A DNA stretch of 64,000 nt from Macrostomum lignano (lineage: Eukaryota): positions 1-64,000 of the forward strand of contig NIVC01002540.1 of NCBI GenBank assembly GCA_002269645.1, read 5' to 3'. A program made the translations under genes and the position numbers. Below the pieces are notes generated by a model. It was not told the origin of the DNA and searched no databases. It saw nothing but the letters and a program-made list of their open reading frames with translations. Below, piece by piece: positions 5,647-39,082 of this stretch (its first letter is position 1; every line of letters begins with the position of its first letter).

Positions 5647-7063
5647 TCAGGCGCAGCTGCCAGGGCGGATCAGGCCGAACAGCAGCAGGCCGCTGTCGCT
5701 CAGCGAGTTGCCGCCCGACTCGCCGCTGCAGCCGACGCCGGAGCAGAAGGAGCCGCCGCCGCCGCCGGCCTGCGGATACCAGCTACCGGCAGCGCCGCCG
5801 CTGAAGCCGCCACCGCCTCCGGCAGCGCCGCTTTGATGGCTGCCGCCTCCGCCTCCACCGAAGCCTCCGACAGCGCCCTCGTTGCCGTGTCCGGCGACGC
5901 CGCCGACCCAGCCCTGGCTGATGCCGCCTCCGCGATCGCCGTAGCAGGTTCTGGTCCTGGAGATGGCCACTCCCAGCCAGCCGGCTCCCAGGCCGCCCTT
6001 GTATGTCCTTGTAGACGGTCCGTAGCTCCCGGGCTGCCCGTTCGCACCGCCGTAGCCGACGTAGGAAGCCGTGCCGACCGAGTCGGTTCCGTTTGGACCA
6101 GCCGATCCGTTCACGCCTGCGTTGAGGCCACAAAGATAGCAAAGATCGGAGCTGTGAGTCACCTAAATGCACTACGGTGATCACCATTAAAAGTACTTTA
6201 GAATCGTTGGTATCGTTAGAAGTGAAATCACGTTAGAAGTATCATGTTATTCTTAATTCATAGCCTGTATCTGAATTTATACCTTTGTATCCGATGGAGC
6301 CACCGCCGCCTCCGCCAGCAGCCAGGTACAGCAAGTTGTCCGAGCTCCGGTACACGAAGGTGCCGCCGCCGCCGCCAGAAGCGGCGTGGTTGTAACTTTG
6401 AGTGGCGTCGCCGCCCCGCTGTCCGATCACCAGGCTGAGCTGCGTTCCCGCCGTCAGGTTGAAGCTGCCTCCGATGCGGGCGCCGAATCCGCCGGTGTAG
6501 ACGGGGCTGAAGGCCGGGTTGGAGCTGCCGCCTCTGGCTCCGAGCGCCTCCATGCGGTAGCAGCCGGTCTCGTTCACCGTCAGGGTCTGGATGGAGCCGG
6601 TCCGGCCCGAGCTGCTGTCTGGAATGCGAAGCAGTATGCCGTAATAAGCAAATCTTTGAGGAAGTCTTATATCTCATTGAAATCTGAGCATTAGAAGGCA
6701 ACTGCTCACTTCTATATGTATTATAGGTGATGTTCCACAGGATGTTGATCTTCTGTGAAACAAAGACCATTTCACCGCTGGTGCCATTGAAGGTTGTGTT
6801 GCATTCCGGCCTGGCCAGACGGAACAGCACAGGCTCAACATGAACAGTCCTGCAGACGCCGTCCTTGAACGCCGCAGCTGCACAGCCTGAGCTGCTGCAC
6901 CGGAAAAGGCACTCAACGCTGCTGCGGATGCCCTGCAGAACTTCCACAGTCTTGCAGCTGTTCGTCCCCTGCCCCACGGTAACGACCGAGCCAGTGAGCG
7001 ACTGTGCCAGACGAAAAACTTCGCTTAAATTTGCCTCTTCGGCTGCTAACGGGCAGACGAGAC
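5647..7063 (-). CDS. PAN/apple-like + glycine-rich domain protein, copy 2 (exons 6710-7063, 6283-6618, 5647-6116; first/signal exon not located)
   Basis: Same exon structure and intron phases as copy 1. PAN-like segment SCKTVEVLQGIRSSVECLFRCSSSGCAAAAFKDGVC; glycine-rich exons nearly identical to copy 1; ends LLLFGLIRPGSCA*. Confidence 0.78.
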
Positions 7064-12759: not shown

Positions 12760-13900
12760 TTTGCTCCAGGGTTGGCTGAGCAGCCGACGCCGGAGCAGAA
12801 GGAGCCGCGCCGCCGACAGCCTGAGAATACCAGCTACCGGCTCCGCCGCCGCTGAAGCCGCCGCCGTTGAAGCCGCCGCCGCTGAAGCCGCTGCCGCCTC
12901 TGGCAGCGCATTTATGATGGCCGCCGCCTTCGCCGAAGCCTTCGATGGCGCCCTTATTGCCGTGTCCGGCGACACCGCCGATCCAGCCTTCGTTGATGCC
13001 GCCTCCACGATCGCCGTAGCACGTGATGGTCCTGGCGTTGGGGACTCCCAGCCAGGCGGCTCCCAGGCCGCCCCTGCATGTCATTGTGGACGGTCCGTAG
13101 CTCCCGGACTGTCCGTTCGCACCGCCATAGCCGATTAATAAGGCGTTGCCGATGGAGTCGGTTCCGTTCAGACCAGCTGATCCGTTGACACATGTACCAA
13201 GCACATCGTAATTAATGAGCTCAGATCACGCTTGTGGAGTGCCGTTTTTCACTTGTTTTAGAAATGATGCAAAAAGGGCCTGAATATAAGTTCCATGCCA
13301 GTCTTTCTCGTGAGCGCATGTGTTTGACTGGATTTTAATTTACCGCTTTCAAATATCATCTACGCGTTTTGAGTGGCGTCGCCGCCCCGCTGTCCGATCA
13401 CCAGGCTGAGCTGCATTCCCGCCGTCAGGTTGAAGCTGCCTCCGATGCGGGCCCCGAATCCGCCGGTGTAGACGGGGCTGAAGGCCGGGTTGGTGCTGCC
13501 GCCTCTGGCTCCGAGCGCCTCCATGCGGTAGCAGCCGGTCTCGTTCACCGCAACGTAGATAATTTTGCCAGTTCTGCCCATGCCGGAGCCTGATGAATGG
13601 GTAGTTTAGTGGCACACGGGTTTCTTAGATGCTCAATCATCTGAGTAAGCAGCCACAGATATACTTGAGTATTCGTACTATAAATTACAGTTGCGACACG
13701 GGCAGAAGCAACGGCGATCGTGTCTGCCATCAGTTCGGCCTGTAGAACTCGTTGATTTGCATTCGCAGCAAGTTCTCTGCTCCGCCAGCAGTCAGCCGCG
13801 GCCGAGGCAGCCGCAGGCAGAAGCCACAAGAGCTGGCAGTCCCCAACTGGCGGAGTTGTGCATCAGAGCGTCCCAGCAGTTGGAGCATCCAAAAAGCTTA
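12760..13900 (-). pseudogene. Degenerate third PAN/glycine-rich domain paralogue
   Basis: Fragments VNETGCYRMEALGARGGSTNPAFS...LVIGQRGGDATQ (13377-13549) and CVNGSAGLNGTDSIG...GGFSGGGAGSWY (12790-13190). The GRD is truncated after DATQ and several Gly motifs have decayed. A weak PAN-like remnant (VGDCQLLWLL...AADCWRSR) lies at ~13690-13900. Confidence 0.65.
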
Positions 13901-26272: not shown

Positions 26273-26464
26273 CGGTTTCTTTTCCTAAAGAAGCTAACTG
26301 TATTAAAATTATGCCAGCCAGCTCACCGCGCTGAGCCCCGCCCTTTGAGCATGAGTCAAACTCAAGCTGTGAGCACGTAAAATTATAGGTAGTAATAATG
26401 GTAGAAACACGAGACGTCACGTACTTAGCAAGGTAATATGACACCCTCCGCACTACTGCTTTAG

Positions 26465-27521
26465 TGTAGAGTGTTCTACCTCCCATAAGAAGACATAAAA
26501 GTGTTAATGTACTACTCATACATTTTATTCAGTAGTAAGTTGAAGAGCATGAATAAAGGTATGCTTTGAATTATAAGTTTATTCTGACTAACCAATAGGA
26601 AGAGAGAGACCTTGTGCATGTTAAATTTAGAAATCACCCAATCACGTGTAACCTGTACTTGTCAAACGCAAACCCCAGGAAAGATGCATCATTCAACTGT
26701 ACGCACGTGACCCAATCAAATGTAACTAAAAATAACTCGAATGCGATGACCAATCACGCGCTTTTACACTGAACCAATGGAATGACTTTCTACCCTGCCA
26801 AGTTTGACAGCAACCAAACCGTGACCTTTTTGACAGCTGAAGAGTTGGACTCACGTGACCTCATGGGGGTCCAATTGCCTATAAATACAAGTGGTCCGGA
26901 ACGGACCCGGAGCCAAAAAAATCTCCAAGAGAGAGAAGCTCCGAAGAGGAAGCTCTAGTGAAGCCTTCCTGAAGAAACTCGCGTCGTGGACGAGTTCTTG
27001 CGGTAAGCCTTACTCATTTGCGCCCGTTGGTTGAGACGTCTCGCTCAAGTCTATTGAGACTTGAGTTTATTTGAGTCTGTTGAGACTCCTGAGTCTGTTT
27101 AGACTCTACTGGTTGCAGTCTCCAGAAGGACTGCCCCTGATAGATCTTAGAAGACTATCAGTGGTTTCCGGAGCTATACCTAGAGTGCATAGAGGCACTG
27201 CTAGAAGGAGTAGGCTTATATTAAACCGCAGATTGGCGCAGGGTACCCATTGTTAATTTGGAAGCTTCCCATTGGTCCGCACTACAGATACCGGCCGGAA
27301 ATACTTCGAAGGGAGAGAAAAGGAAACTCGGACCCAATCGACATCTGAAGACGTCTAAAAGTCTAAGAGATCTACAGAACCGAACGACTCAAGAACGATA
27401 TCAAGGAATCCGGATCAAGGTAATTGAATACCTTCATTTGATTACTGGGTTGCCTAGCTACAGAGCTAGAAGTGATTGTTCCTTGATTACAGTTGAGGAC
27501 TGGTAATAAGGAACGCCATCA
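26465..27521 (+). repeat. 5' LTR
   Basis: TGTAGAGTG...GAACGCCATCA; direct repeat of 36339-37395. By eye I saw one difference (CCCATAAG vs CCCGTAAG). Confidence 0.96.
26580..26890 (+). promoter_or_regulatory. LTR U3 promoter: clustered CCAAT boxes, CACGTG E-boxes and TATA box
   Basis: At least five CCAAT motifs, three CACGTG motifs (TCACGTGT, GCACGTGAC, TCACGTGAC) and TATAAA at 26880-26885. Confidence 0.6.
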
Positions 27522-27523
27522 AT

Positions 27524-27534
27524 TGGTGATCTCG
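27524..27534 (+). other. Primer-binding site, probably tRNA-Trp
   Basis: TGGTGATCTCG starts 2 nt after the 5' LTR. It matches the tRNA-Trp-type PBS TGGTGACCCCG with two G:U-compatible changes; the tRNA identity is an inference. Confidence 0.6.
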
Positions 27535-28295
27535 CCCTCTCGGCACTACTCAAACTTTGAGCAATAGCCCTGATCAAGCTATTGTAACGTGACGAAAGAG
27601 CGACTTCATTAATTTTGCGCGCACGTGTTAGAGTTAACACTTTTGAAGTCCGAACGTTTTGAAACTCGAGTAAAAATTTTGGTGTACAGGTTTGAGCACC
27701 TGTCAATTTTGAGTACAGTTTGAGCACGCGTGTAAATTTTTGTTTTAACGAGCTCGAGCAAGTGTGAGTTTAAAATAAACCGAAAAACAAACCGAAAATA
27801 AAAAGAATCGTCGAAGCAAAACAAACAAAAAAATAACTAAAACATTTTACCGGCACAAAAACTAAAACAAAACCGAAAAACAACGTCCGGTACACTGAAA
27901 ACAAACCGAAAAGTAATCAATACACACTAAAACAAAACCGAAATTAAAAACACTTGACGAAAGCTAAAACAAACCGAAAATTGATAAAACGTGACAAGGC
28001 ACGTCACAAAGACAAGAAAGGCCTTTGAAAAAAACAAGAAGACAAAGTCCACTTCAACGTGAAGATACACTTTGCGGGACGCCGCATAAGTGCGAAATCA
28101 GCAAGCGAACAGAACAAGTTCATTTGAGGACAACCAGTGGCAGCAAGCCACACCGCATTCGAGGCCAACGAATAACAAATCGACACCACAAGGCAATTCG
28201 TTACAGTCGAAGTTTATTCCGAGGCAAACACCACACTGGACGATCCGTTACAAATCGATCCAGATCTTGAACTACCGTTCTACCCTATCAACAAC

Positions 28296-31200
28296 ATGGC
28301 GCGGCGCAATCCAACGGTACACAGAGACATCAAAGAAACGGTCGGTACTTTCTCGATGGAGAAAGATTTTAACACATTTGTCGACCATTTCGACCTGGTA
28401 TGTAGGGAATACAACCTAAAAAATCCAGAGAAGGCACAGCTGCTGCCACCTCTTCTCCAAGGTACTGCGCGAGAAATTTACGGCAAGCTGGACGCGGCAA
28501 CACAGCAAAATTATCCAGCACTAATCATTCAACTGCGCGCGCATTTCAACCGTTGCGGCACAAACAGATCAGTGCTGCTGCACAAGTTACATACCAGAAG
28601 GATGCAAGCAACGGAATCCTTCCTCGCCTTTGTGGACGATATCCGCCAGATAATTAAGGCACTGCATCAGCCACCGCTGCAAGCTGCGGACCAACCGCCA
28701 CTGGGAGCGGCAGAATTGGCCGCCAGAGAAAGACAGCGATTGATGGATCGCGAACAAAACCTAATCCTGCACGTAATAAACAACGCACAGCCGTCACTTC
28801 GGGATAGACTTTTACGAGAAAATATCGAAACCGAAGAAGACCTTTTGCGGTGCGGAATGCAATGGGAAGCCAGTGCCCCATTAATGACGACAGGCAACAA
28901 TGAAGTGCAGAAACTGACGCAGCAATTAAACAAGTTAATGCAGCACCAGACAGCTGCTATCGCCGAACAAAAAAGACGAAATGAACAAGCCTCAGCCAGA
29001 TGTTACTACTGCGGACAAGAAGGACATTATCAGATTAATTGTCCTCATTGGTCAACAAGATACGACAAGCCGCGACAGATATTCAACAATCAAAAGCCGC
29101 AGAAACCATGGCAGCAATATCAAAATCGCCAACAACAAGGCATGAGACGCTTCGGAAATGATAGACGCTTCGGAAATAATGACCGCTCCGGAAATGATGG
29201 CCGCTTCGGAAATGATGGCCGCTTCGGAAATGACGGCCGCTTCAGAAATAATAGCTACAGGCCACGCAACGCCAGGTACACACAAAGACAGCCAACGCAA
29301 GCAATGCCACGATACGCGAATGCCATCACGTACACACCGGAAAATGAGCAGCAAGAACAGCAAGTGTTCACAATTGATGACTTGGAAATGGACTTCACAG
29401 TCCCGGAACTTGACATCAGCTTGATCGAAAAAAAGACAACGCACGAGGACAACACTGACAAGGCAGAAGAGGCGAATGAAACCGAAATGATCGAATTAAA
29501 AGAGACCACCGGAGACAGCAGAGAAAACAGGAAGAAAGTAAATCACAAAAAAAGGGAGGAGGCGGAGAGCGATACCGGCAACGAAGAAAAGAGGGAGACC
29601 AACGAAGAGAACAACTATGAATCAACAGCAGTGAAAGACGACAAAATAAGCATGAAAGACAAAGAAATAAAAGAAGAAGAATGTAAGAGTTACGGCAACG
29701 ATCACGACTGCGAGGTGCGTGATGACACGAACGTCTACCAAGCCGAAGAAGGAATGCAGGAAGAACTGAGAGCGGAAAATCTAAGCTCCGACAGCGATCA
29801 AGGCTACGAAATACAATGGAAGGATGAAGAAATGGAAAAAGAACAGAGGAAAGAAAAGCCGAGTTCCGACAGCGACGAATGCTACGAGATCCGATACAAA
29901 CGAAATGGTGAAGCCTACATTCAAACAGTCGACTACAAGACAGAGAGAAAATACCAAACGCAATGGAGTGAAACAACTGAAACATCAGAAGAAGCGGCAG
30001 ACGAAGATACTGAAATAACCAAAAAGCAAAGCGAATCAGAACCCTTCCGCCTGAAACAGCCAATAGAGCAACCGGAAGGATATGATGCGGACATGGAAGA
30101 TAACGAATGGCAGTCGCGGCCAATGCCAGCAAAGACAACGGCAAAGTCCAAAAAGTGGAAAAACTGGCTACTCTGGATCATCGTGATACTACTGATAGCA
30201 GTAGTCGCCAAAGCAAAGGCAACGGAAAAGCCAATGATCTGTCCAACGGATGCGCATATCCAACCGATGATCTACAAGATACCAACCGACATCAAATGCA
30301 GCTACTTCAAGACAAACCAGACGAAGCCAAAGAAGATTACACTTGATCTCTACAAGGCTAACATCAAAAAGCATCGACAACACGGAATAGTGTGCTGCAG
30401 AGACAAGCACCTAGTGGAAAAAGTCTGGCGCGGACAATGGAATAGGATCCGATTTAAACAACATGAGCTACATGTGTCGCACGCGGAATGCCTACAATGG
30501 AACCAAACACTGTTTTCAAAGGATGGTGAACTGGAACCAGATGAGAAGGTCGGCAACGCACAGCTGTTCAGAACAAAGAATTCAGCCAACGGTCGATACA
30601 TTCACTTCTTCGGAAAATGGAAAGAATATGTAGCACGCAACAGCTACTTGATCAGAAATATTCCATTCTACTACAATCCATACGAGAAAATGGAATCGCT
30701 ACAGCTACAACTAAGCGAATGTCGATACAGTGAAGGATGGTGTCCAACACCAATTCTACGGAAGGAAGAATTACACAGTCTACCACTGAGTCCAACATAT
30801 CATCAAAACTATCGATGGCAGATTGAGCACAGAGCACAATCACACTATGAGGAACCGTACAAGGCACGACAATATTACTTCGCATGGGAAGTAGAGCCGG
30901 AAATTGACTGCAAGCTTCAAAAGTACCACACAGTGGAAGGAGGGCTACTGTCGAATACATTTTTGGCAAAAGCAGGAGACTTGGCCTTGACGTTTCAAAG
31001 GAAGCCGGTCGAACAGGAACTCAAATGCAAAGATACGGACAAGACGCTATTCATTTCGGAACAAGAAATACCAGTCTACGTGAAGGATGCTGACAAACAA
31101 ACCTTCCTGGCAATCATAAATGGAACATATCAGCAACAAGAGAGACAACGACGCGGCATAGAACGTCCACGATTGGTGTCAAACCGACTGCTGTCAGCAA

Positions 31201-32450
31201 AGATCACGGCGCTGGATCACAACCTGCATAACCAGCTTAACCACTTACATCGGTCACTGGTTCAGCTAACTTGCAAAATGCACGCAATCAACTTGAACTA
31301 CGCAAGGCAAAACTACTATGTCAACCCTACGATGACATTTCGCAAGATCACGGGAATGAGAGAGGTTCTGGCAATTCCGATATATGGACATCTCCTGATA
31401 TACAAGTGCACGCCGATACAGCACTTCAACATCTTGCCGTCGAACACTTCAACAACTTGCTACGACAAGCCGAGAATTGAAGCATTCTACGAAGGCAAAA
31501 GAATACAAGGATTCTTGGACACAGTACACAACATCATCGTTGGCACAGCCATACCAAGACCCTGCACCACTGCAGCAAACTACTATCAACTGGACAATGC
31601 ACTACACGTCATTAAAACGACAGGAACGACAGCGAACATCACGGAACCAGAAGTGATTGTCGATGAAACGTACGATATGGACGATCTGAAGATACGGTTC
31701 AACAGAACGAAGTACACGCCATTCGCCGATATCCAACTCGATGAGATAACACCCGGATGGACCATCAACGACTTCTTGCAAGCGTTCATCACTCAACGGA
31801 AGATGATTCGTCAACTCTTCACACGAAAGAATAAAGGAACAGGCACAGGCAGTTTTCCGGTCCTAGTGTCTATGGACAACGCCATCCAATCGTTTTGGAC
31901 CAACAGCTTCTTAGAGCTGCTTAACGGAAAAGGCAGCCTCTATCAAGGCTTCATCTTCTACAGTGCCTGTGTTGTATGGGTAGTTACGGCAATCTTTATC
32001 ATCTCGTCGATAGTACGATGCTTCAGCAACACTTGTCCCACAGCGAAACGAACAGTGAACGCCATCATGCAGAAGATACCAAGGGAAGAAGACAACAACT
32101 TGGAATTGACAGAGGATGCACGTCAAGAAACTCAAGGACAGCCGACACCATCAACGCGAATGTATCCATCGATTCCGACAACACCAACAGCACCGAGAAT
32201 GCAGCCACCTGGCTATCAGCAGGATCAACACGAGCCGAAATGGCCAGAAAACTACGTCTGCACGCTACACGCTGAGATTGGCAAGGCAATGGCTCAGGTC
32301 ATTGTCAACAACTTGCCATGTCGAGCACTACTGGATTCAGGCAGCTCTATCACCGTCATCTCGCAACAATTATGCAACAAGCTACGACTCGCGGTACGAC
32401 CAGCAGCAATCGCAGTTGCAGGAGCAGGAGGACATTCACTCAATATCTAG
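28296..32450 (+). CDS. Gag - acidic linker - signal peptide - Env-like glycoprotein - TM - cytoplasmic tail - N-half of aspartic protease (1384-aa ORF)
   Basis: Kozak AACATGG. Capsid-like FNTFVDHFDLVCREY...KAQLLPPLLQGTAREIY. CCHC knuckle CYYCGQEGHYQINC at 29001-29042. Signal WLLWIIVILLIAVVAKAKA at ~30156-30221. Cys-rich ectodomain with N-glycosylation sequons (NQT, NGT, NTS, NIT, NRT). RQRR at 31143-31154. TM FIFYSACVVWVVTAIFIISSIV at ~31950-32015. Protease LLDSGS at 32328-32345. Confidence 0.9.
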   Translation: MARRNPTVHRDIKETVGTFSMEKDFNTFVDHFDLVCREYNLKNPEKAQLLPPLLQGTAREIYGKLDAATQQNYPALIIQLRAHFNRCGTNRSVLLHKLHTRRMQATESFLAFVDDIRQIIKALHQPPLQAADQPPLGAAELAARERQRLMDREQNLILHVINNAQPSLRDRLLRENIETEEDLLRCGMQWEASAPLMTTGNNEVQKLTQQLNKLMQHQTAAIAEQKRRNEQASARCYYCGQEGHYQINCPHWSTRYDKPRQIFNNQKPQKPWQQYQNRQQQGMRRFGNDRRFGNNDRSGNDGRFGNDGRFGNDGRFRNNSYRPRNARYTQRQPTQAMPRYANAITYTPENEQQEQQVFTIDDLEMDFTVPELDISLIEKKTTHEDNTDKAEEANETEMIELKETTGDSRENRKKVNHKKREEAESDTGNEEKRETNEENNYESTAVKDDKISMKDKEIKEEECKSYGNDHDCEVRDDTNVYQAEEGMQEELRAENLSSDSDQGYEIQWKDEEMEKEQRKEKPSSDSDECYEIRYKRNGEAYIQTVDYKTERKYQTQWSETTETSEEAADEDTEITKKQSESEPFRLKQPIEQPEGYDADMEDNEWQSRPMPAKTTAKSKKWKNWLLWIIVILLIAVVAKAKATEKPMICPTDAHIQPMIYKIPTDIKCSYFKTNQTKPKKITLDLYKANIKKHRQHGIVCCRDKHLVEKVWRGQWNRIRFKQHELHVSHAECLQWNQTLFSKDGELEPDEKVGNAQLFRTKNSANGRYIHFFGKWKEYVARNSYLIRNIPFYYNPYEKMESLQLQLSECRYSEGWCPTPILRKEELHSLPLSPTYHQNYRWQIEHRAQSHYEEPYKARQYYFAWEVEPEIDCKLQKYHTVEGGLLSNTFLAKAGDLALTFQRKPVEQELKCKDTDKTLFISEQEIPVYVKDADKQTFLAIINGTYQQQERQRRGIERPRLVSNRLLSAKITALDHNLHNQLNHLHRSLVQLTCKMHAINLNYARQNYYVNPTMTFRKITGMREVLAIPIYGHLLIYKCTPIQHFNILPSNTSTTCYDKPRIEAFYEGKRIQGFLDTVHNIIVGTAIPRPCTTAANYYQLDNALHVIKTTGTTANITEPEVIVDETYDMDDLKIRFNRTKYTPFADIQLDEITPGWTINDFLQAFITQRKMIRQLFTRKNKGTGTGSFPVLVSMDNAIQSFWTNSFLELLNGKGSLYQGFIFYSACVVWVVTAIFIISSIVRCFSNTCPTAKRTVNAIMQKIPREEDNNLELTEDARQETQGQPTPSTRMYPSIPTTPTAPRMQPPGYQQDQHEPKWPENYVCTLHAEIGKAMAQVIVNNLPCRALLDSGSSITVISQQLCNKLRLAVRPAAIAVAGAGGHSLNI

Positions 32451-34471
32451 GAAAAGCAGATATCGACTTGAAAATTGCTAATAAACATCTGACGGTCCCG
32501 ACGTACATCATCGACAAACTACCAAACCAAGACGTCATTGTTGGAATCGACACGTTCAAGCAGCTTCGACTACCATTGACCTTCGACTTCAACAAGCAAA
32601 CGTTTAGGATTGACACGGTGGAGCAACCACTGATTAACCAGATTCGAGTACTACCAAAAGTTACCTTACAGCAAGATGTCATCATCCAGCCTGAAAGTGC
32701 ATGCTGGGTCAGAGCGAAAGCGACCAGCGCGGCAGATGAAGCAATGATATTTGATCCACACAGGAGAGTCACGGCAAAACATCAAATCATGATGCCTACG
32801 GCACTAGTGCTGGTGGCGAAAGATAAGCAGCTGCCAGTACAAATCTTCAACCCGAACGCGGAAATGGTTCATCTACGACAAGGAATGTGCATCGGTCATC
32901 TCAACACTCAAGCATCAGTTATGCTGATTGAGCACACGACTCCACGACTAACAGAAGAAGAATTTCAAAAGAAAATCAACTTGGACGACAGCCCGATCAC
33001 GGAACAGCAAAAGAAGAAAGTTCGACAACTGTTGTGGAAGTACAACGAAGCCTTCTGCCATCATGATTACGACATCGGACGCGCTAAAGACATTAAACAA
33101 GAAATCAAGCTTCTACCGCACACTGAACCAATTCAGTGCAAGCCGTACCCGATTGCCAAGCATCTGCAACAACACTTTGACGAAATTATTGATAAAATGC
33201 TAAAGCACGGCATCATCAGCAAAGCAATTTCAGCCTATTCCTCACCGTGCCTACTGGTACAAAAGAAAGAGACTAACGAGAGACGACTTGTATGCGACTT
33301 CAGACTGCTGAACAAGTACATACCGACGGATCAGCAAAGCCTACCAAAGATCTCCGAGCTACTAGCAAAGCTCAACACAGCAAAATTGTTCACGGTGTTC
33401 GACCTACGTCATGGATTTTGGCAAATTGAAATCGAGAAAGAATCACGACAGTACACGGCTTTTAAGACCTACAATGGACAAGTCTACGAGTACAACCGAT
33501 CGCCAATGGGACTCAGCAACAGCCCAGCAACAATGAGCCGACTAACGGCATACATGCTTGCAGGATGCACAAACCTGCTGCACTATGTCGACGACATCTT
33601 GGCCTACGGAGAAGACTTCCAACGACTCTATGAAGCTACGGAGAAGGCCCTAGCGCTCATTCAACGCCAAGGTCTTAAGCTACAACCGACGAAATGCAAA
33701 TTCTTCCGAGACAACGTACGTTACCTAGGACACCAAGTGACAGCCAAAGGAATCTCACCGGACCCAGACAATGTGGAGAAAGTAAAAAAGTTTCCTACGC
33801 CAACTAGCATTACGAAGGTCCAATCGTTTCTTGGACTAGCGCAATACTTCCGAAAGTTCTTACCGAACTTCGCGAAGACAGCAAAACCGCTGTACGACCT
33901 GCTCAAATTCGACAAGTGGAAACGAGAGAACTGGACGCAAAAGCAGCAAGAGAGTTTCGACGAAATCAAACGACAACTGACATCAGACGCACTACTACAG
34001 CATCCGGACTTCGACAAACCCTTCATCATCGAGACAGACGCCTCAGGAACGGGACTCGGAGCCGTCCTACTACAGGAAACCGAGGACAAGAAGGAGCGAC
34101 CTATCGCCTACGTCAGTCGAGCACTCAAGCCAAATGAAACAAAGTGGTCAGCTACGGAACGCGAGCTACTAGGAGTCTTGTTCGCCCTACGACAGTTCCA
34201 TTACTACATCTATGGTTCTCCAATACCGACGATAGTACGCACAGATCACGCACCGCTGACCTACGTCGTAACTACAAAAGGACAAACAAATAACCGACTC
34301 ATCAGGATGACACTCAAGATCCAGGACTACAACTACAAGCTCGTCTACAAACCAGGAATTACTAACAAGGCGCGGACGCTCTGTCAAGAGCCTACGAAGT
34401 CAACGCCATTCATCCAATCCCTAACATCAAGGAATTGGTGGATGAGACTGAACACGACAACTTCTACATAG
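32318..34471 (+). CDS. Pol part 1: protease C-half, dUTPase-like spacer, reverse transcriptase, RNase H (true reading starts ~32448 via a -1 shift)
   Basis: DVIVGIDTF (protease end); YSSPCLLVQKK...RRLVCDFRLLN; FTVFDLRHGFWQI; YNRSPMGLSNSPATM; YVDD at 33584-33595; RNase H IETDASGTGLGAVL, WSATERELLG, RTDHAPL. Confidence 0.95.
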   Translation: MSSTTGFRQLYHRHLATIMQQATTRGTTSSNRSCRSRRTFTQYLGKADIDLKIANKHLTVPTYIIDKLPNQDVIVGIDTFKQLRLPLTFDFNKQTFRIDTVEQPLINQIRVLPKVTLQQDVIIQPESACWVRAKATSAADEAMIFDPHRRVTAKHQIMMPTALVLVAKDKQLPVQIFNPNAEMVHLRQGMCIGHLNTQASVMLIEHTTPRLTEEEFQKKINLDDSPITEQQKKKVRQLLWKYNEAFCHHDYDIGRAKDIKQEIKLLPHTEPIQCKPYPIAKHLQQHFDEIIDKMLKHGIISKAISAYSSPCLLVQKKETNERRLVCDFRLLNKYIPTDQQSLPKISELLAKLNTAKLFTVFDLRHGFWQIEIEKESRQYTAFKTYNGQVYEYNRSPMGLSNSPATMSRLTAYMLAGCTNLLHYVDDILAYGEDFQRLYEATEKALALIQRQGLKLQPTKCKFFRDNVRYLGHQVTAKGISPDPDNVEKVKKFPTPTSITKVQSFLGLAQYFRKFLPNFAKTAKPLYDLLKFDKWKRENWTQKQQESFDEIKRQLTSDALLQHPDFDKPFIIETDASGTGLGAVLLQETEDKKERPIAYVSRALKPNETKWSATERELLGVLFALRQFHYYIYGSPIPTIVRTDHAPLTYVVTTKGQTNNRLIRMTLKIQDYNYKLVYKPGITNKARTLCQEPTKSTPFIQSLTSRNWWMRLNTTTST

Positions 34472-35796
34472 CAGTTAAAAACAACGACAAGGACATCAAG
34501 CTCAGCCCCGTGGAACGAAAATTCCTGCGCAAGCAGCGACAACATTTAACAATCAACAAGTCACGACTCTACTGGATGAGTGACAACAAACCTAAAATCT
34601 ACATGCCATATTCGTTTAGGCAGGCCATTCTCAACGAGCTGCACGACAACCCACTCGCTGGACACCTGTCGGCAGCCAAAACCATTGCAAGAGTGGAGCA
34701 ATACTACTTTTGGCCAAGCATGCATGGCGACATCAAGCAGTATTGCAACAACTGCCACTCATGCGCAGCATCGAAGACAGGACGACGACAGAAACCACAG
34801 CTACAATCGATACCGAAGTCAACAACTATGGACTGTCTCAGCATCGACATCACCGGACCGCTGCCACCGAGCTGTCTCCATGGCATAGCCTACACCTACA
34901 TCCTAACAGCCTTGGACATTTTCTCAAAGTTTGCTATTGCCATACCAATACCGGACATCACAGCTCAGACAGTGGCAATGGGTTTCTTCAACGACATCAT
35001 CTGCAAGTACGGTACGCCAAAGAACCTCACATCGGACAATGGATCGCAGTTTACGTCTCAACTCTTTCAGCAAGTGGTGAAGATCCTCAACATCACGCAG
35101 ATCTACACATCGACCTACAATCCGAAGGCGAACATGGTTGAAAGGTTTCACCGCAACCTACACGAGATGATTACACACTTCGCGCATCAACAACCGGACG
35201 ACTGGATCATCTATCTGCAAGCAGTAACAATGGCCTACAACAGCGCTATTCATCGATCAACGGATAATACGCCATTCTTTCTAATGTTTGGGCGAGACTT
35301 CCAGCCGCCAAACCTATTGGCACAGCAACTACTACCATCGCAATATGTGGAAGTCCCGACGTCCATTCAAAAGTTCGTCACGCAACTACACCTCGCATGG
35401 AAAGTAGCCAAGCACAACATCGACAATCAGGTGGCTCTAACCACCGGCACCGACACGAGATCGACAACTCTGACAGCCGGCGACATCGTCTACCTGCACT
35501 ATCCGCCGCAACAGACGCACAAACACGCACAGAAGTACAAAGGACCATATCGAGTGGTCCAACTAACGTCACCGACAACGGCACGCCTGGCCAATGTGCA
35601 AGATCCTCATCAGCACCAATTCTACGTGCACATTCATCGACTAAAGAAGATCAACACTGACACGACAACGTTTTTACCGTCACTAGACAACGCTGATCGC
35701 ACGCGTTCGGCGAACCGCCACATCGCAACAAAACACGAGGAGACACAAACATCAACCGAGAAACAGCAACATGGCTACAATCTGCGACCTCGTTAA
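34373..35796 (+). CDS. Pol part 2: integrase (continues from RNase H via a -1 shift at ~34370)
   Basis: The frame opens with ADALSRAY (end of RNase H). HHCC LHDNPLAGH...CNNCHSC; DDE SIDITG / SDNGSQF / MVERF; KYKGPYRV (GPY/F module); ends GYNLRPR*. Confidence 0.95.
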
Positions 35797-35907: not shown

Positions 35908-36120
35908 ATGGGCAACGCACTGTCCAAACAGGCGCCCCAACTACAGCAACTCTACGAATGCCCAATATGTTTAACTGACGACTTGGCTGTCAAGCCACCA
36001 ATTATTTGTGAAAACAGACATCGCATATGCGGACAATATTTAGGCGACTCACATTATATTCAGCTCTGGCAGAATTGCCCGATAGGTAGAAGAAGTTTGC
36101 GGCAGTGCGCCTATCGTTAG
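35908..36120 (+). CDS. Small accessory ORF: N-myristoylation motif plus degenerate RING finger (70 aa)
   Basis: Strong Kozak ACAATGG; MGNALS fits MGxxxS; CPIC-x12-C-x3-H-x2-C-x2-[Y]-x12-C-x2-[G]R follows C3HC4 RING spacing with two ligands replaced. Confidence 0.65.
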   Translation: MGNALSKQAPQLQQLYECPICLTDDLAVKPPIICENRHRICGQYLGDSHYIQLWQNCPIGRRSLRQCAYR

Positions 36121-36338: not shown

Positions 36339-37395
36339 TGTAGAGTGTTCTACCTCCCGTAAGAAGACATAAAAGTGTTAATGTACTACTCATACATTTT
36401 ATTCAGTAGTAAGTTGAAGAGCATGAATAAAGGTATGCTTTGAATTATAAGTTTATTCTGACTAACCAATAGGAAGAGAGAGACCTTGTGCATGTTAAAT
36501 TTAGAAATCACCCAATCACGTGTAACCTGTACTTGTCAAACGCAAACCCCAGGAAAGATGCATCATTCAACTGTACGCACGTGACCCAATCAAATGTAAC
36601 TAAAAATAACTCGAATGCGATGACCAATCACGCGCTTTTACACTGAACCAATGGAATGACTTTCTACCCTGCCAAGTTTGACAGCAACCAAACCGTGACC
36701 TTTTTGACAGCTGAAGAGTTGGACTCACGTGACCTCATGGGGGTCCAATTGCCTATAAATACAAGTGGTCCGGAACGGACCCGGAGCCAAAAAAATCTCC
36801 AAGAGAGAGAAGCTCCGAAGAGGAAGCTCTAGTGAAGCCTTCCTGAAGAAACTCGCGTCGTGGACGAGTTCTTGCGGTAAGCCTTACTCATTTGCGCCCG
36901 TTGGTTGAGACGTCTCGCTCAAGTCTATTGAGACTTGAGTTTATTTGAGTCTGTTGAGACTCCTGAGTCTGTTTAGACTCTACTGGTTGCAGTCTCCAGA
37001 AGGACTGCCCCTGATAGATCTTAGAAGACTATCAGTGGTTTCCGGAGCTATACCTAGAGTGCATAGAGGCACTGCTAGAAGGAGTAGGCTTATATTAAAC
37101 CGCAGATTGGCGCAGGGTACCCATTGTTAATTTGGAAGCTTCCCATTGGTCCGCACTACAGATACCGGCCGGAAATACTTCGAAGGGAGAGAAAAGGAAA
37201 CTCGGACCCAATCGACATCTGAAGACGTCTAAAAGTCTAAGAGATCTACAGAACCGAACGACTCAAGAACGATATCAAGGAATCCGGATCAAGGTAATTG
37301 AATACCTTCATTTGATTACTGGGTTGCCTAGCTACAGAGCTAGAAGTGATTGTTCCTTGATTACAGTTGAGGACTGGTAATAAGGAACGCCATCA
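36339..37395 (+). repeat. 3' LTR
   Basis: Preceded by a short purine tract ATGGGAGA; same sequence as the 5' LTR at offset 9874; followed by TSD TTAG. Confidence 0.96.
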
Positions 37396-37418
37396 TTAGG
37401 AGCAATGTACCTGTTTTA

Positions 37419-39082
37419 GGCTTAACAGTCGGATGACGAAGCTATTTTTCCATTGCACGGATGCCGATGGGGGGGGGGTATTTCAAATACCCAAAAAGTT
37501 ATCCACGCCATAACTCTTGAACCCGACCATGGATTCGTCTGAAAATTCACAGTACGGGCTAAAATTTATCGAGTAATCTGATGAAGCCATCGCCGACTCT
37601 CTCCGACATCGAGATCGTCGAGATATTCAGCGATTCTCAAGGAGGTCCCCCTGTTTTTGAAGGCAAACCGTCGAATTCAGTGGCTAGGTCTTGACACCAG
37701 GCAGTAAGGTGCACAAAATGATCCCAAACCTCATTTCAGCCATTGGTGAGGTAACCCAGAACACTTGTAGTGCGCTACAACAATGCCCCGTGGCCACCGT
37801 CGACCATCGTCAGGACATTCAACGAGCACATTCTGACATCATCGGAATTTGAGATCCGAAACAAATTTCGGTCAAATATTTATTATGAAATTTTGTCAAT
37901 GAGCAACCTACGAACCACTGCAGTCACGCCTAGTTATTTTGCGCCGTTTCGCTTATCGATCGTTAGGAAAAATGTCCAAGGATCAATTTGAAAAAAAACA
38001 GAATCGCACGAAGTTTTTATTTGTTCATAAACGCAGCAATTTTCTTTTTTTAGCACACAGAAAGTGCTTGTGAATTGTTCTTAAAACTGGCGCAACAGAG
38101 TAAAGTCGCTATGGAACGGTGTCATTGAATAAACAGTCTAATAAACATGGAATAAACAGTTGTAAAGGAATAAACAGTCTGCAATGATCTGCAATAAACA
38201 GCATGCAATGGACGCATGAACCAAAATTGTACACAGCAAGGCCTCCACTTTTTTCATTCACCGCCATGTCTTGTCCCACCTGTCTTGTTCCACGTAAACT
38301 TTTAGTGTCACTTTCTCTTACTCACTCAGACTTTTACACTAAAAGATGTACCCAGTTTTGTCCAAATTAACGAAAAAAATCGGTTTAGCTGAATCGAAAT
38401 GCAGAATCTATATGGACTAATAACTAGGCGTGACTGCAGTGGTTCGTAGGTTGCTCATTAGTTAGTTGCGCGCTTAGATTGCTAGGGTGCTCATTGGTGA
38501 GGCTTGATCAAGAATTTCTAGCCAAAGTATATGCTAGACTGTCAGAAGTCGGATGGACACATCCGTTGAAGGTCCCGACGGTCGTCCAGACGGTCGGGAT
38601 GGTGCAGGAAGTATAGTGACTGCAGTGGTTCGTAGGCTGCTCATTGACAAAATTTCATAATAAATATTTGACCGAAATTTGTTTCGGATCTCAAATTCCG
38701 ATGATGTCAGAATGTGCTCGTTGAATGTCCTGACGATGGTCGACGGTGGCCACGGGGCATTGTTGTAGCGCACTACAAGTGTTCTGGGTTACCTCACCAA
38801 TGGCTGAAATGAGGTTTGGGATCATTTTGTGTACCTTACTGCCTGGTGTCAAGACCTAGCCACTGAATTCGACGGTTTGCCTTCAAAAACAGGGGGACCT
38901 CCTTGAGAATCGCTGAATATCTCGACGATCTCGATGTCGGAGAGAGTCGGCGATGGCTTCATCAGATTACTCGATAAATTTTAGCCCGTACTGTGAATTT
39001 TCAGACGAATCCATGGTCGGGTTCAAGAGTTATGGCGTGGATAACTTTTTGGGTATTTGAAATACCCCCCCATCGGCATCCG
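37419..39082. mobile_element. Foldback/MULE-like non-autonomous DNA element with ~470-bp inverted arms
   Basis: 37458-37927 is the near-perfect reverse complement of 38616-39082. A 9-bp direct repeat CCTGTTTTA lies at 37410-37418 and 39083-39091. No transposase ORF inside. Confidence 0.75.

Follow-up and report, generated by a model that had tools for sequence, protein, structure and literature searches.

A Gypsy-type retrotransposon with env between gag and pol

The window that we analysed, a stretch of 64,000 nucleotides from contig NIVC01002540.1 of the Macrostomum lignano assembly GCA_002269645.1, carries an LTR retrotransposon of the Ty3/gypsy group (Metaviridae), as is evident from its LTRs, its primer-binding site and the pol order PR-RT-RH-IN. 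All features of the element given below lie on the plus strand. The 5′ LTR (26465..27521, 1057 bp) and the 3′ LTR (36339..37395) differ by one mismatch, and the target-site duplication TTAG is found at 26461-26464 and 37396-37399. The reverse complement of the primer-binding site (27524..27535) equals the primer-binding site of Mlig_errantivirus_2 (PMC13524379, supplement 1), and the reading frame together with a domain search placed env between gag and pol. This Gypsy LTR element is young and belongs to the gB-type errantiviruses of GAG-ENV-POL layout, which have already been published (PMC13524379).

The first open frame (28176..32450, first ATG at 28296) encodes Gag, an acidic spacer, a signal or first membrane segment (TM1), a gB-type Env, a second membrane segment (TM2), a tail and the start of the protease. 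The nucleocapsid is marked by a CCHC zinc knuckle (29001..29042; zf-CCHC, E 6e-4, just under the cut-off), after which six 18-nt repeats encoding RFGND-like units are found at 29130-29273. The first ATG is followed by alanine and not by glycine, and the element's frames gave no Pfam match to a matrix family. Judged from its sequence, the segment at 30165..30221, which is preceded by lysines, is an internal signal peptide and TM1. The Env ectodomain (30222..31946) contains a furin-type RQRR site (31143-31154) and ends at the Env anchor TM2 (31947..32003), a hydrophobic segment of 19 residues with a mean KD of 2.38. The Env cytoplasmic tail (32004..32243) comprises about 80 residues, is proline-rich and poorly conserved and reaches a conserved Trp-Pro (32241..32246), the likely cut that would free the N-terminus of the protease. 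The protease motif ALLDSGS (Pfam Asp_protease_2) lies at 32325-32345.

In the window copy, the reading frame is interrupted near 32450 and again near 34400. Its first frame stops inside the protease, the remaining protease, RT and RNase H occupy a second frame (32276..34471) and the integrase a third (34366..35796). Other copies possess single open frames of 2480-2866 aa, and a UniRef protein of M. lignano shares 99% identity with a sister copy of family A, the family of the window copy. A homolog search restricted to long proteins gave one match.

Downstream of the integrase, the window copy retains a truncated piece (35908..36120) of a RING-like accessory ORF. In other copies, two to three ORFs of about 210-250 aa each follow pol and show tandem RING-like Cys/His patterns (L079, L080 and L081 in family A; L084, L085 and L090 in family B), with weak Pfam matches to zf-RING_2 or Sina_RING below the cut-off. 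The first of these in family A starts with MGNALSK, which we take to fit the N-myristoylation pattern. The accessory ORFs are possibly element-encoded ubiquitin ligases. Shortly beyond the 3′ LTR, on its right, lies a perfect inverted repeat of 456 nt whose arms enclose a spacer of 688 nt (37472-39071), possibly a non-autonomous DNA transposon. The rest of the window holds dispersed repeat fragments (1272-1922, 5845-6559, 12920-13530) and numerous minisatellite arrays with units of 12-67 nt.

Env is modelled as a fusogen of the herpesvirus gB type

Searches with the single Env sequence did not identify the protein in the PDB or in Pfam, where Monjiviricetes_fusion remained below the cut-off. 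A profile built from 84 relatives, when compared to the PDB, retrieved herpesvirus gB structures with an E value of 1e-25. An AlphaFold model based on the same number of aligned sequences reached a pLDDT of 81, as opposed to only 35 with a five-sequence alignment, and Foldseek matched the model to gB with an E value of 9e-22 and a TM-score of only about 0.4. According to profile and model, the region between the signal/TM segment and the TM segment is thus a herpesvirus gB (class III) fold, with an ectodomain of about 570 aa that carries six N-glycosylation sequons. The Env of family C (L067, L131, L132) contains an insert of more than 200 aa near the furin-type site, which is Thr/Ser-rich (mucin-like) where it was read (L067), and the family B copies L069-L071 share a deletion that spans the Env anchor, the tail and the protease start. 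On the minus strand of L069, a mariner-like transposase ORF, identified by eye, adjoins the family B copy.

Three late-domain-like motifs on the Env tail

The block MYPSIPTTPTAPRMQPPGY (32160-32216), which comprises 19 residues and begins with an ATG at 32160, contains three motifs: YPSI of the ALIX type (32163-32174; as [M/L]YPSI 32160..32174), PTAP of the TSG101 type (32184-32195) and PPGY of the PPxY type (32205-32216). From YPSI to PPGY they span residues 1330-1347 of the open frame and are located downstream of TM2 and upstream of the protease ALLDSGS. The preliminary description, which reported three late-domain-like motifs within 18 residues of the Env tail and placed them between the membrane segment and the protease, is exact in both respects. 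Its comparison of this position to HIV p6 is loose in that about 570 lumenal Env residues and two membrane segments separate the block from Gag. With this separation, it is Env, rather than Gag, that the motifs would accompany.

The tail of the window copy matches both the P(T/S)AP and the PPxY consensus. The tyrosine motif ends in isoleucine, and relatives carry LYPTL, IYPKI, IYPTI or LYPKI. The consensus given in the accessible text of reviews is YPXnL, so that YPxI is non-canonical (PMC7995964, PMC10159163); the Ile form is marked as uncertain in the entry for yellow fever NS3, which reads 'YPTI?' including the question mark (PMC10159163). Beyond the tail, the 1424-aa frame holds just one other match to the three patterns, a YPAL in the capsid region. 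When the tail was shuffled 20,000 times with its composition kept, the single motifs arose in 1.4%, 2.1% and 3.3% of the shuffles; among 400,000 shuffles, PTAP together with YPx[IL] arose in 102 and all three motifs in 4.

The motifs persist in close copies and across lineages of the genome

We fetched 30 loci out of 41 matches as close copies of family A. YPSI is present in 30/30 and PTAP in 29/30 of them, and PPxY is likewise kept in all 30, the variable residue being G (3 copies), T (6), I (1) or N (20). For a codon test, 68 in-register loci, some of which represent the same place twice, yielded 24 distinct haplotypes. The pN/pS ratio was 0.02 in the 10 core motif codons and 0.44 in the remaining 9 of the block, as compared to 0.28 in the proximal tail, 0.19 at the end of the ectodomain and 0.06 at the protease start. 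The signal in the core codons comes from small counts (4 synonymous changes to 1 non-synonymous), and the contrast of 0.02 to 0.28-0.44 within family A is not significant on its own (Fisher p = 0.16).

Protein searches of the genome defined the lineage groups A, B, C and D, which share RT identities of 82% (A-B), 42-45% (A-C), 39% (A-D) and 33-35% (C-D). Between groups, the tails are just 19-33% identical, with 11-21% proline. P[TS]AP occurs in seven of eight lineage tails, the eighth having PPAP, and YPx[IL] in six of eight, each time preceded by a hydrophobic residue. A de novo search for 4-mers returned P[ST]AP as the top pattern (7/8 lineages), whereas the maximum in 200 shuffled runs was 4/8. 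Two lineages were read afterwards: L213 has PSAP and LYPTI, and L236, a Gag-Env-protease lineage, has none of the three motifs. Over all ten tails, P[TS]AP is found in 8, YPx[IL] in 7 and PPxY in 1. In three old C2 copies (L104-L106), PSAP is deleted and a stop is present. Loss of the motifs with retention of the surrounding Pro/Thr-rich linker had been named beforehand as the pattern that would speak for chance; the opposite was seen, as the motifs persist in tails that are otherwise so divergent. PPxY as a part of the module stands for the window family, but not for the genome at large.

P[TS]AP precedes the tyrosine motif in B, C1 and D1 and follows it in A, and this swapped order points to a turnover of working motifs. 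Our RT tree of 12 rows (7 own, 5 outside), built without C3 and D1, holds too few for mapping motif gains. B1, B2 and C3 have PPxY upstream of the signal segment, towards Gag, and the Gag-side spacer of some lineages that do not have them in the tail shows PPPY, PPAY or PPRY, YPPI and PSAP (L062 at aa 590, L065, L069, L132 at aa 501-521, L067 at aa 580). The Trp-Pro lies 28-35 aa before the catalytic motif in 8/8 lineages and is also found in L213; it is absent from L236. As a general trait we rejected it, since outside elements have W/F/Y-Pro in just 7/26 cases (6 of them WP).

Late-domain motifs are enriched in the tails of outside relatives

The outside profile search found 214 proteins at E ≤ 0.001, 150 of which were among the matches listed. 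A membrane segment and a tail could be called in 64, and after P0005 (own family C) and P0010 (a 6-aa tail) had been dropped, 62 tails were compared to their shuffled counterparts. Among the matches listed, these 62 tails contain P[TS]AP 8 times versus 0.68 expected from shuffling, YPx[IL] 9 times versus 1.80 and PPxY 10 times versus 1.44; any motif is present in 22 versus 3.8, and two or more classes in 5 versus 0.14. Each observed count was equalled in 0/2000 shuffles, which ignore shared ancestry. Without P0008 and six doubtful calls, the 55 remaining tails among the matches listed still gave 7, 7 and 10 versus 0.67, 1.70 and 1.42, and 40 of the 62 have no strict motif. Thus, all three classes are enriched in the outside tails among the matches listed, which argues for the late-domain interpretation at the level of sequence.

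Among the matches listed, five decoy patterns were not enriched in the 62 outside tails, nor were the motifs enriched in the lumenal stretch before the membrane segment (2/62), and they occurred in 0/23 outside Gag-side spacers. In 15 post-protease control stretches, [LIMV]YPx[IL] was found twice versus 0.14 expected. At 21 env-less Gypsy-type protease loci, which represent only a handful of families, neither the region upstream of the protease nor that downstream of the zinc knuckle contained a motif; one env-less Gypsy family has a PPKY near the start of the Gag frame. We also considered YPSI as an adaptor-type YxxΦ signal and found this assignment not supported: in the outside tails among the matches listed, the generic pattern Y[^P]xΦ occurs at chance (25 versus 24.4), as do dileucine motifs (7 versus 6.3), so that the tyrosine motif is better read as ALIX-type than as adaptor-type.

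Candidate host partners are encoded in the genome

The M. lignano genome encodes a TSG101 UEV domain (141 bits), which retains Thr58, Tyr68-Pro71, Met95 and Pro139-Val141 and has His in place of human TSG101 Tyr63 and Val in place of Phe142, two residues that presumably line the UEV pocket. ALIX-type V domains are encoded as well, and the V-domain exon keeps the KFY..LTE.L segment, which we take to have a role in YPXnL binding.

A model for budding driven by the fusogen tail

The tail motifs are, as far as comparison of sequences can establish, a real and selected feature, in which P(T/S)AP and the ALIX-type motif form a shared core and PPxY an optional extra. We propose, with a probability of roughly 0.68, that the three motifs are working ESCRT late domains on the tail of a gB-type Env, which would let the element bud as enveloped particles. 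PTAP is predicted to bind TSG101, [LM]YPSI to bind ALIX and PPxY to bind a NEDD4-type ligase. The two hydrophobic segments and the lumenal sequons suggest that the motifs face the cytosol. The polyprotein would cross the membrane twice, with Gag and the spacer in the cytosol, Env in the lumen and the tail, PR, RT and IN again in the cytosol. If TM1 acts as internal signal, Gag would remain attached to the membrane through TM1 after cleavage by signal peptidase, and a Gag tethered in this way would need no matrix domain. The alanine after the first ATG and the missing Pfam matrix family similarly suggest that TM1 may supply the membrane anchor. Env and Pol would stay joined at assembly, so that each subunit would bring late domains to the bud neck; since one frame provides every Gag with an Env tail, late domains could get there without being part of Gag. 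Aromatic-Pro is a type of retroviral protease site which the Trp-Pro resembles, and the protease would later cut there and leave the motifs on Env.

More broadly, we lean slightly towards the view that gB-type errantiviruses follow a budding strategy of their own, in which a membrane-threaded Gag-Env-Pol dispenses with a matrix domain, the tail of the fusogen instead of Gag recruits ESCRT and interchangeable late domains are gained and lost across lineages.

Since the motifs are located on the tail of a membrane protein, they might bind ESCRT factors or ligases for routing or clearance of Env through MVBs, exosomes or lysosomes, leaving less fusogen at the surface, and serve no budding function. 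In endocytosis, overlapping motifs are employed by cellular membrane proteins, ENaC among them, and HSV gB goes to MVBs (accessible text of PMC7995964), and some relatives, namely L236 and 40/62 outside tails among the matches listed, have no strict motif. We nevertheless regard such sorting as unlikely: the ordinary adaptor signals Y[^P]xΦ and dileucine are not enriched in the tails, a combination of all three viral late-domain classes whose order can change is what has been described for budding proteins (PMC7995964, accessible text), and with no motif in the outside Gag-side spacers among the matches listed, no other carrier of late domains is evident there.

It is still less probable that ESCRT serves an intracellular step, such as budding at the ER or endosome or nuclear delivery, and that no infectious release follows, as has been proposed for LINE-1 ORF1p. 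LINE-1 stays inside the cell and yet makes use of a YPXnL-ALIX contact (PMC5478143, accessible text), and a signal-anchored polyprotein would probably assemble at the ER first; however, the element has kept a complete fusogen of the gB type, including a furin-type site, and the 21 env-less Gypsy loci of the same genome have no such motifs. Chance occurrence of the motifs within a linker rich in Pro and Thr is the idea to which we give hardly any credence. The proline content of the tails and the non-significant codon test within the family would fit it, but it is largely refuted by the shuffles that preserve composition and by the de novo search, as well as by the decoy patterns and the enrichment in outside tails.

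If late domains for budding are indeed what the tails carry, they would be evidence, at the level of sequence, that Gypsy elements of non-insect invertebrates make enveloped particles that can be transmitted from cell to cell. In PMC13524379, as far as its text is accessible, env function was inferred solely from intact env folds, and late domains on the Env tail would bear independently on whether env-bearing invertebrate retrotransposons outside Drosophila leave the cell. The motifs also name candidate host partners (TSG101, ALIX and NEDD4-type ligases) in a tractable flatworm, suggest how a polyprotein with no evident matrix domain can bud and would add the tail of a fusogen to the Gag and matrix proteins as carriers of late domains.

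Comparison with known systems

Bluetongue virus has no envelope, and its NS3, a non-structural membrane protein, acts in release and is not a fusogen; the Ebola PTAPPEY motif sits on the matrix protein, which is not a fusogen either. Late domains are usually found in Gag or other structural proteins, NS3 being a noted exception, and NS3 (PSAP and PPXY) and Ebola PTAPPEY both exemplify late domains outside Gag that are clustered or overlapping (accessible text of PMC7995964). The overlapping PTAPPTY of the outside protein P0066 resembles the Ebola motif described there.

The closest known elements are the GAG-ENV-POL HSV/gB-type Ty3/gypsy errantiviruses of Platyhelminthes, Bryozoa and Nematoda, which include Mlig_errantivirus_2 and share the gene order, the gB-type Env, the LTRs and the many near-identical copies (Chary and Hayashi, PMC13524379, as far as accessible). 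The Gag-Env-Pol layout is hence already published; late domains on it we did not find in print. The main text of that paper, in its accessible part, is silent on late domains, ESCRT, the cytoplasmic tail, budding, polyprotein and RING, and neither the tail motifs nor the RING-like ORFs are described there. The openly accessible literature yielded no report of late domains on the Env tail of a Gypsy element or errantivirus, and the accessible text of the late-domain review PMC8402826 mentions neither 'Env' nor 'cytoplasmic tail'.

LINE-1 ORF1p likewise links a retrotransposon to a late domain and ESCRT, but LINE-1 is a non-LTR element, has no envelope and one motif and is assigned an intracellular role (accessible text of PMC5478143). 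In retroviral Gag, the same three classes occur, with PT/SAP and YPXnL in HIV-1 p6, PPXY in oncoretroviruses and YPXnL in EIAV, and they are similarly combined and independent of position (PMC7995964, accessible text). In contrast to retroviral Gag, the motifs of the M. lignano element are located on the Env tail, with two membrane segments between them and Gag, and isoleucine is often the last residue of the ALIX-type motif.
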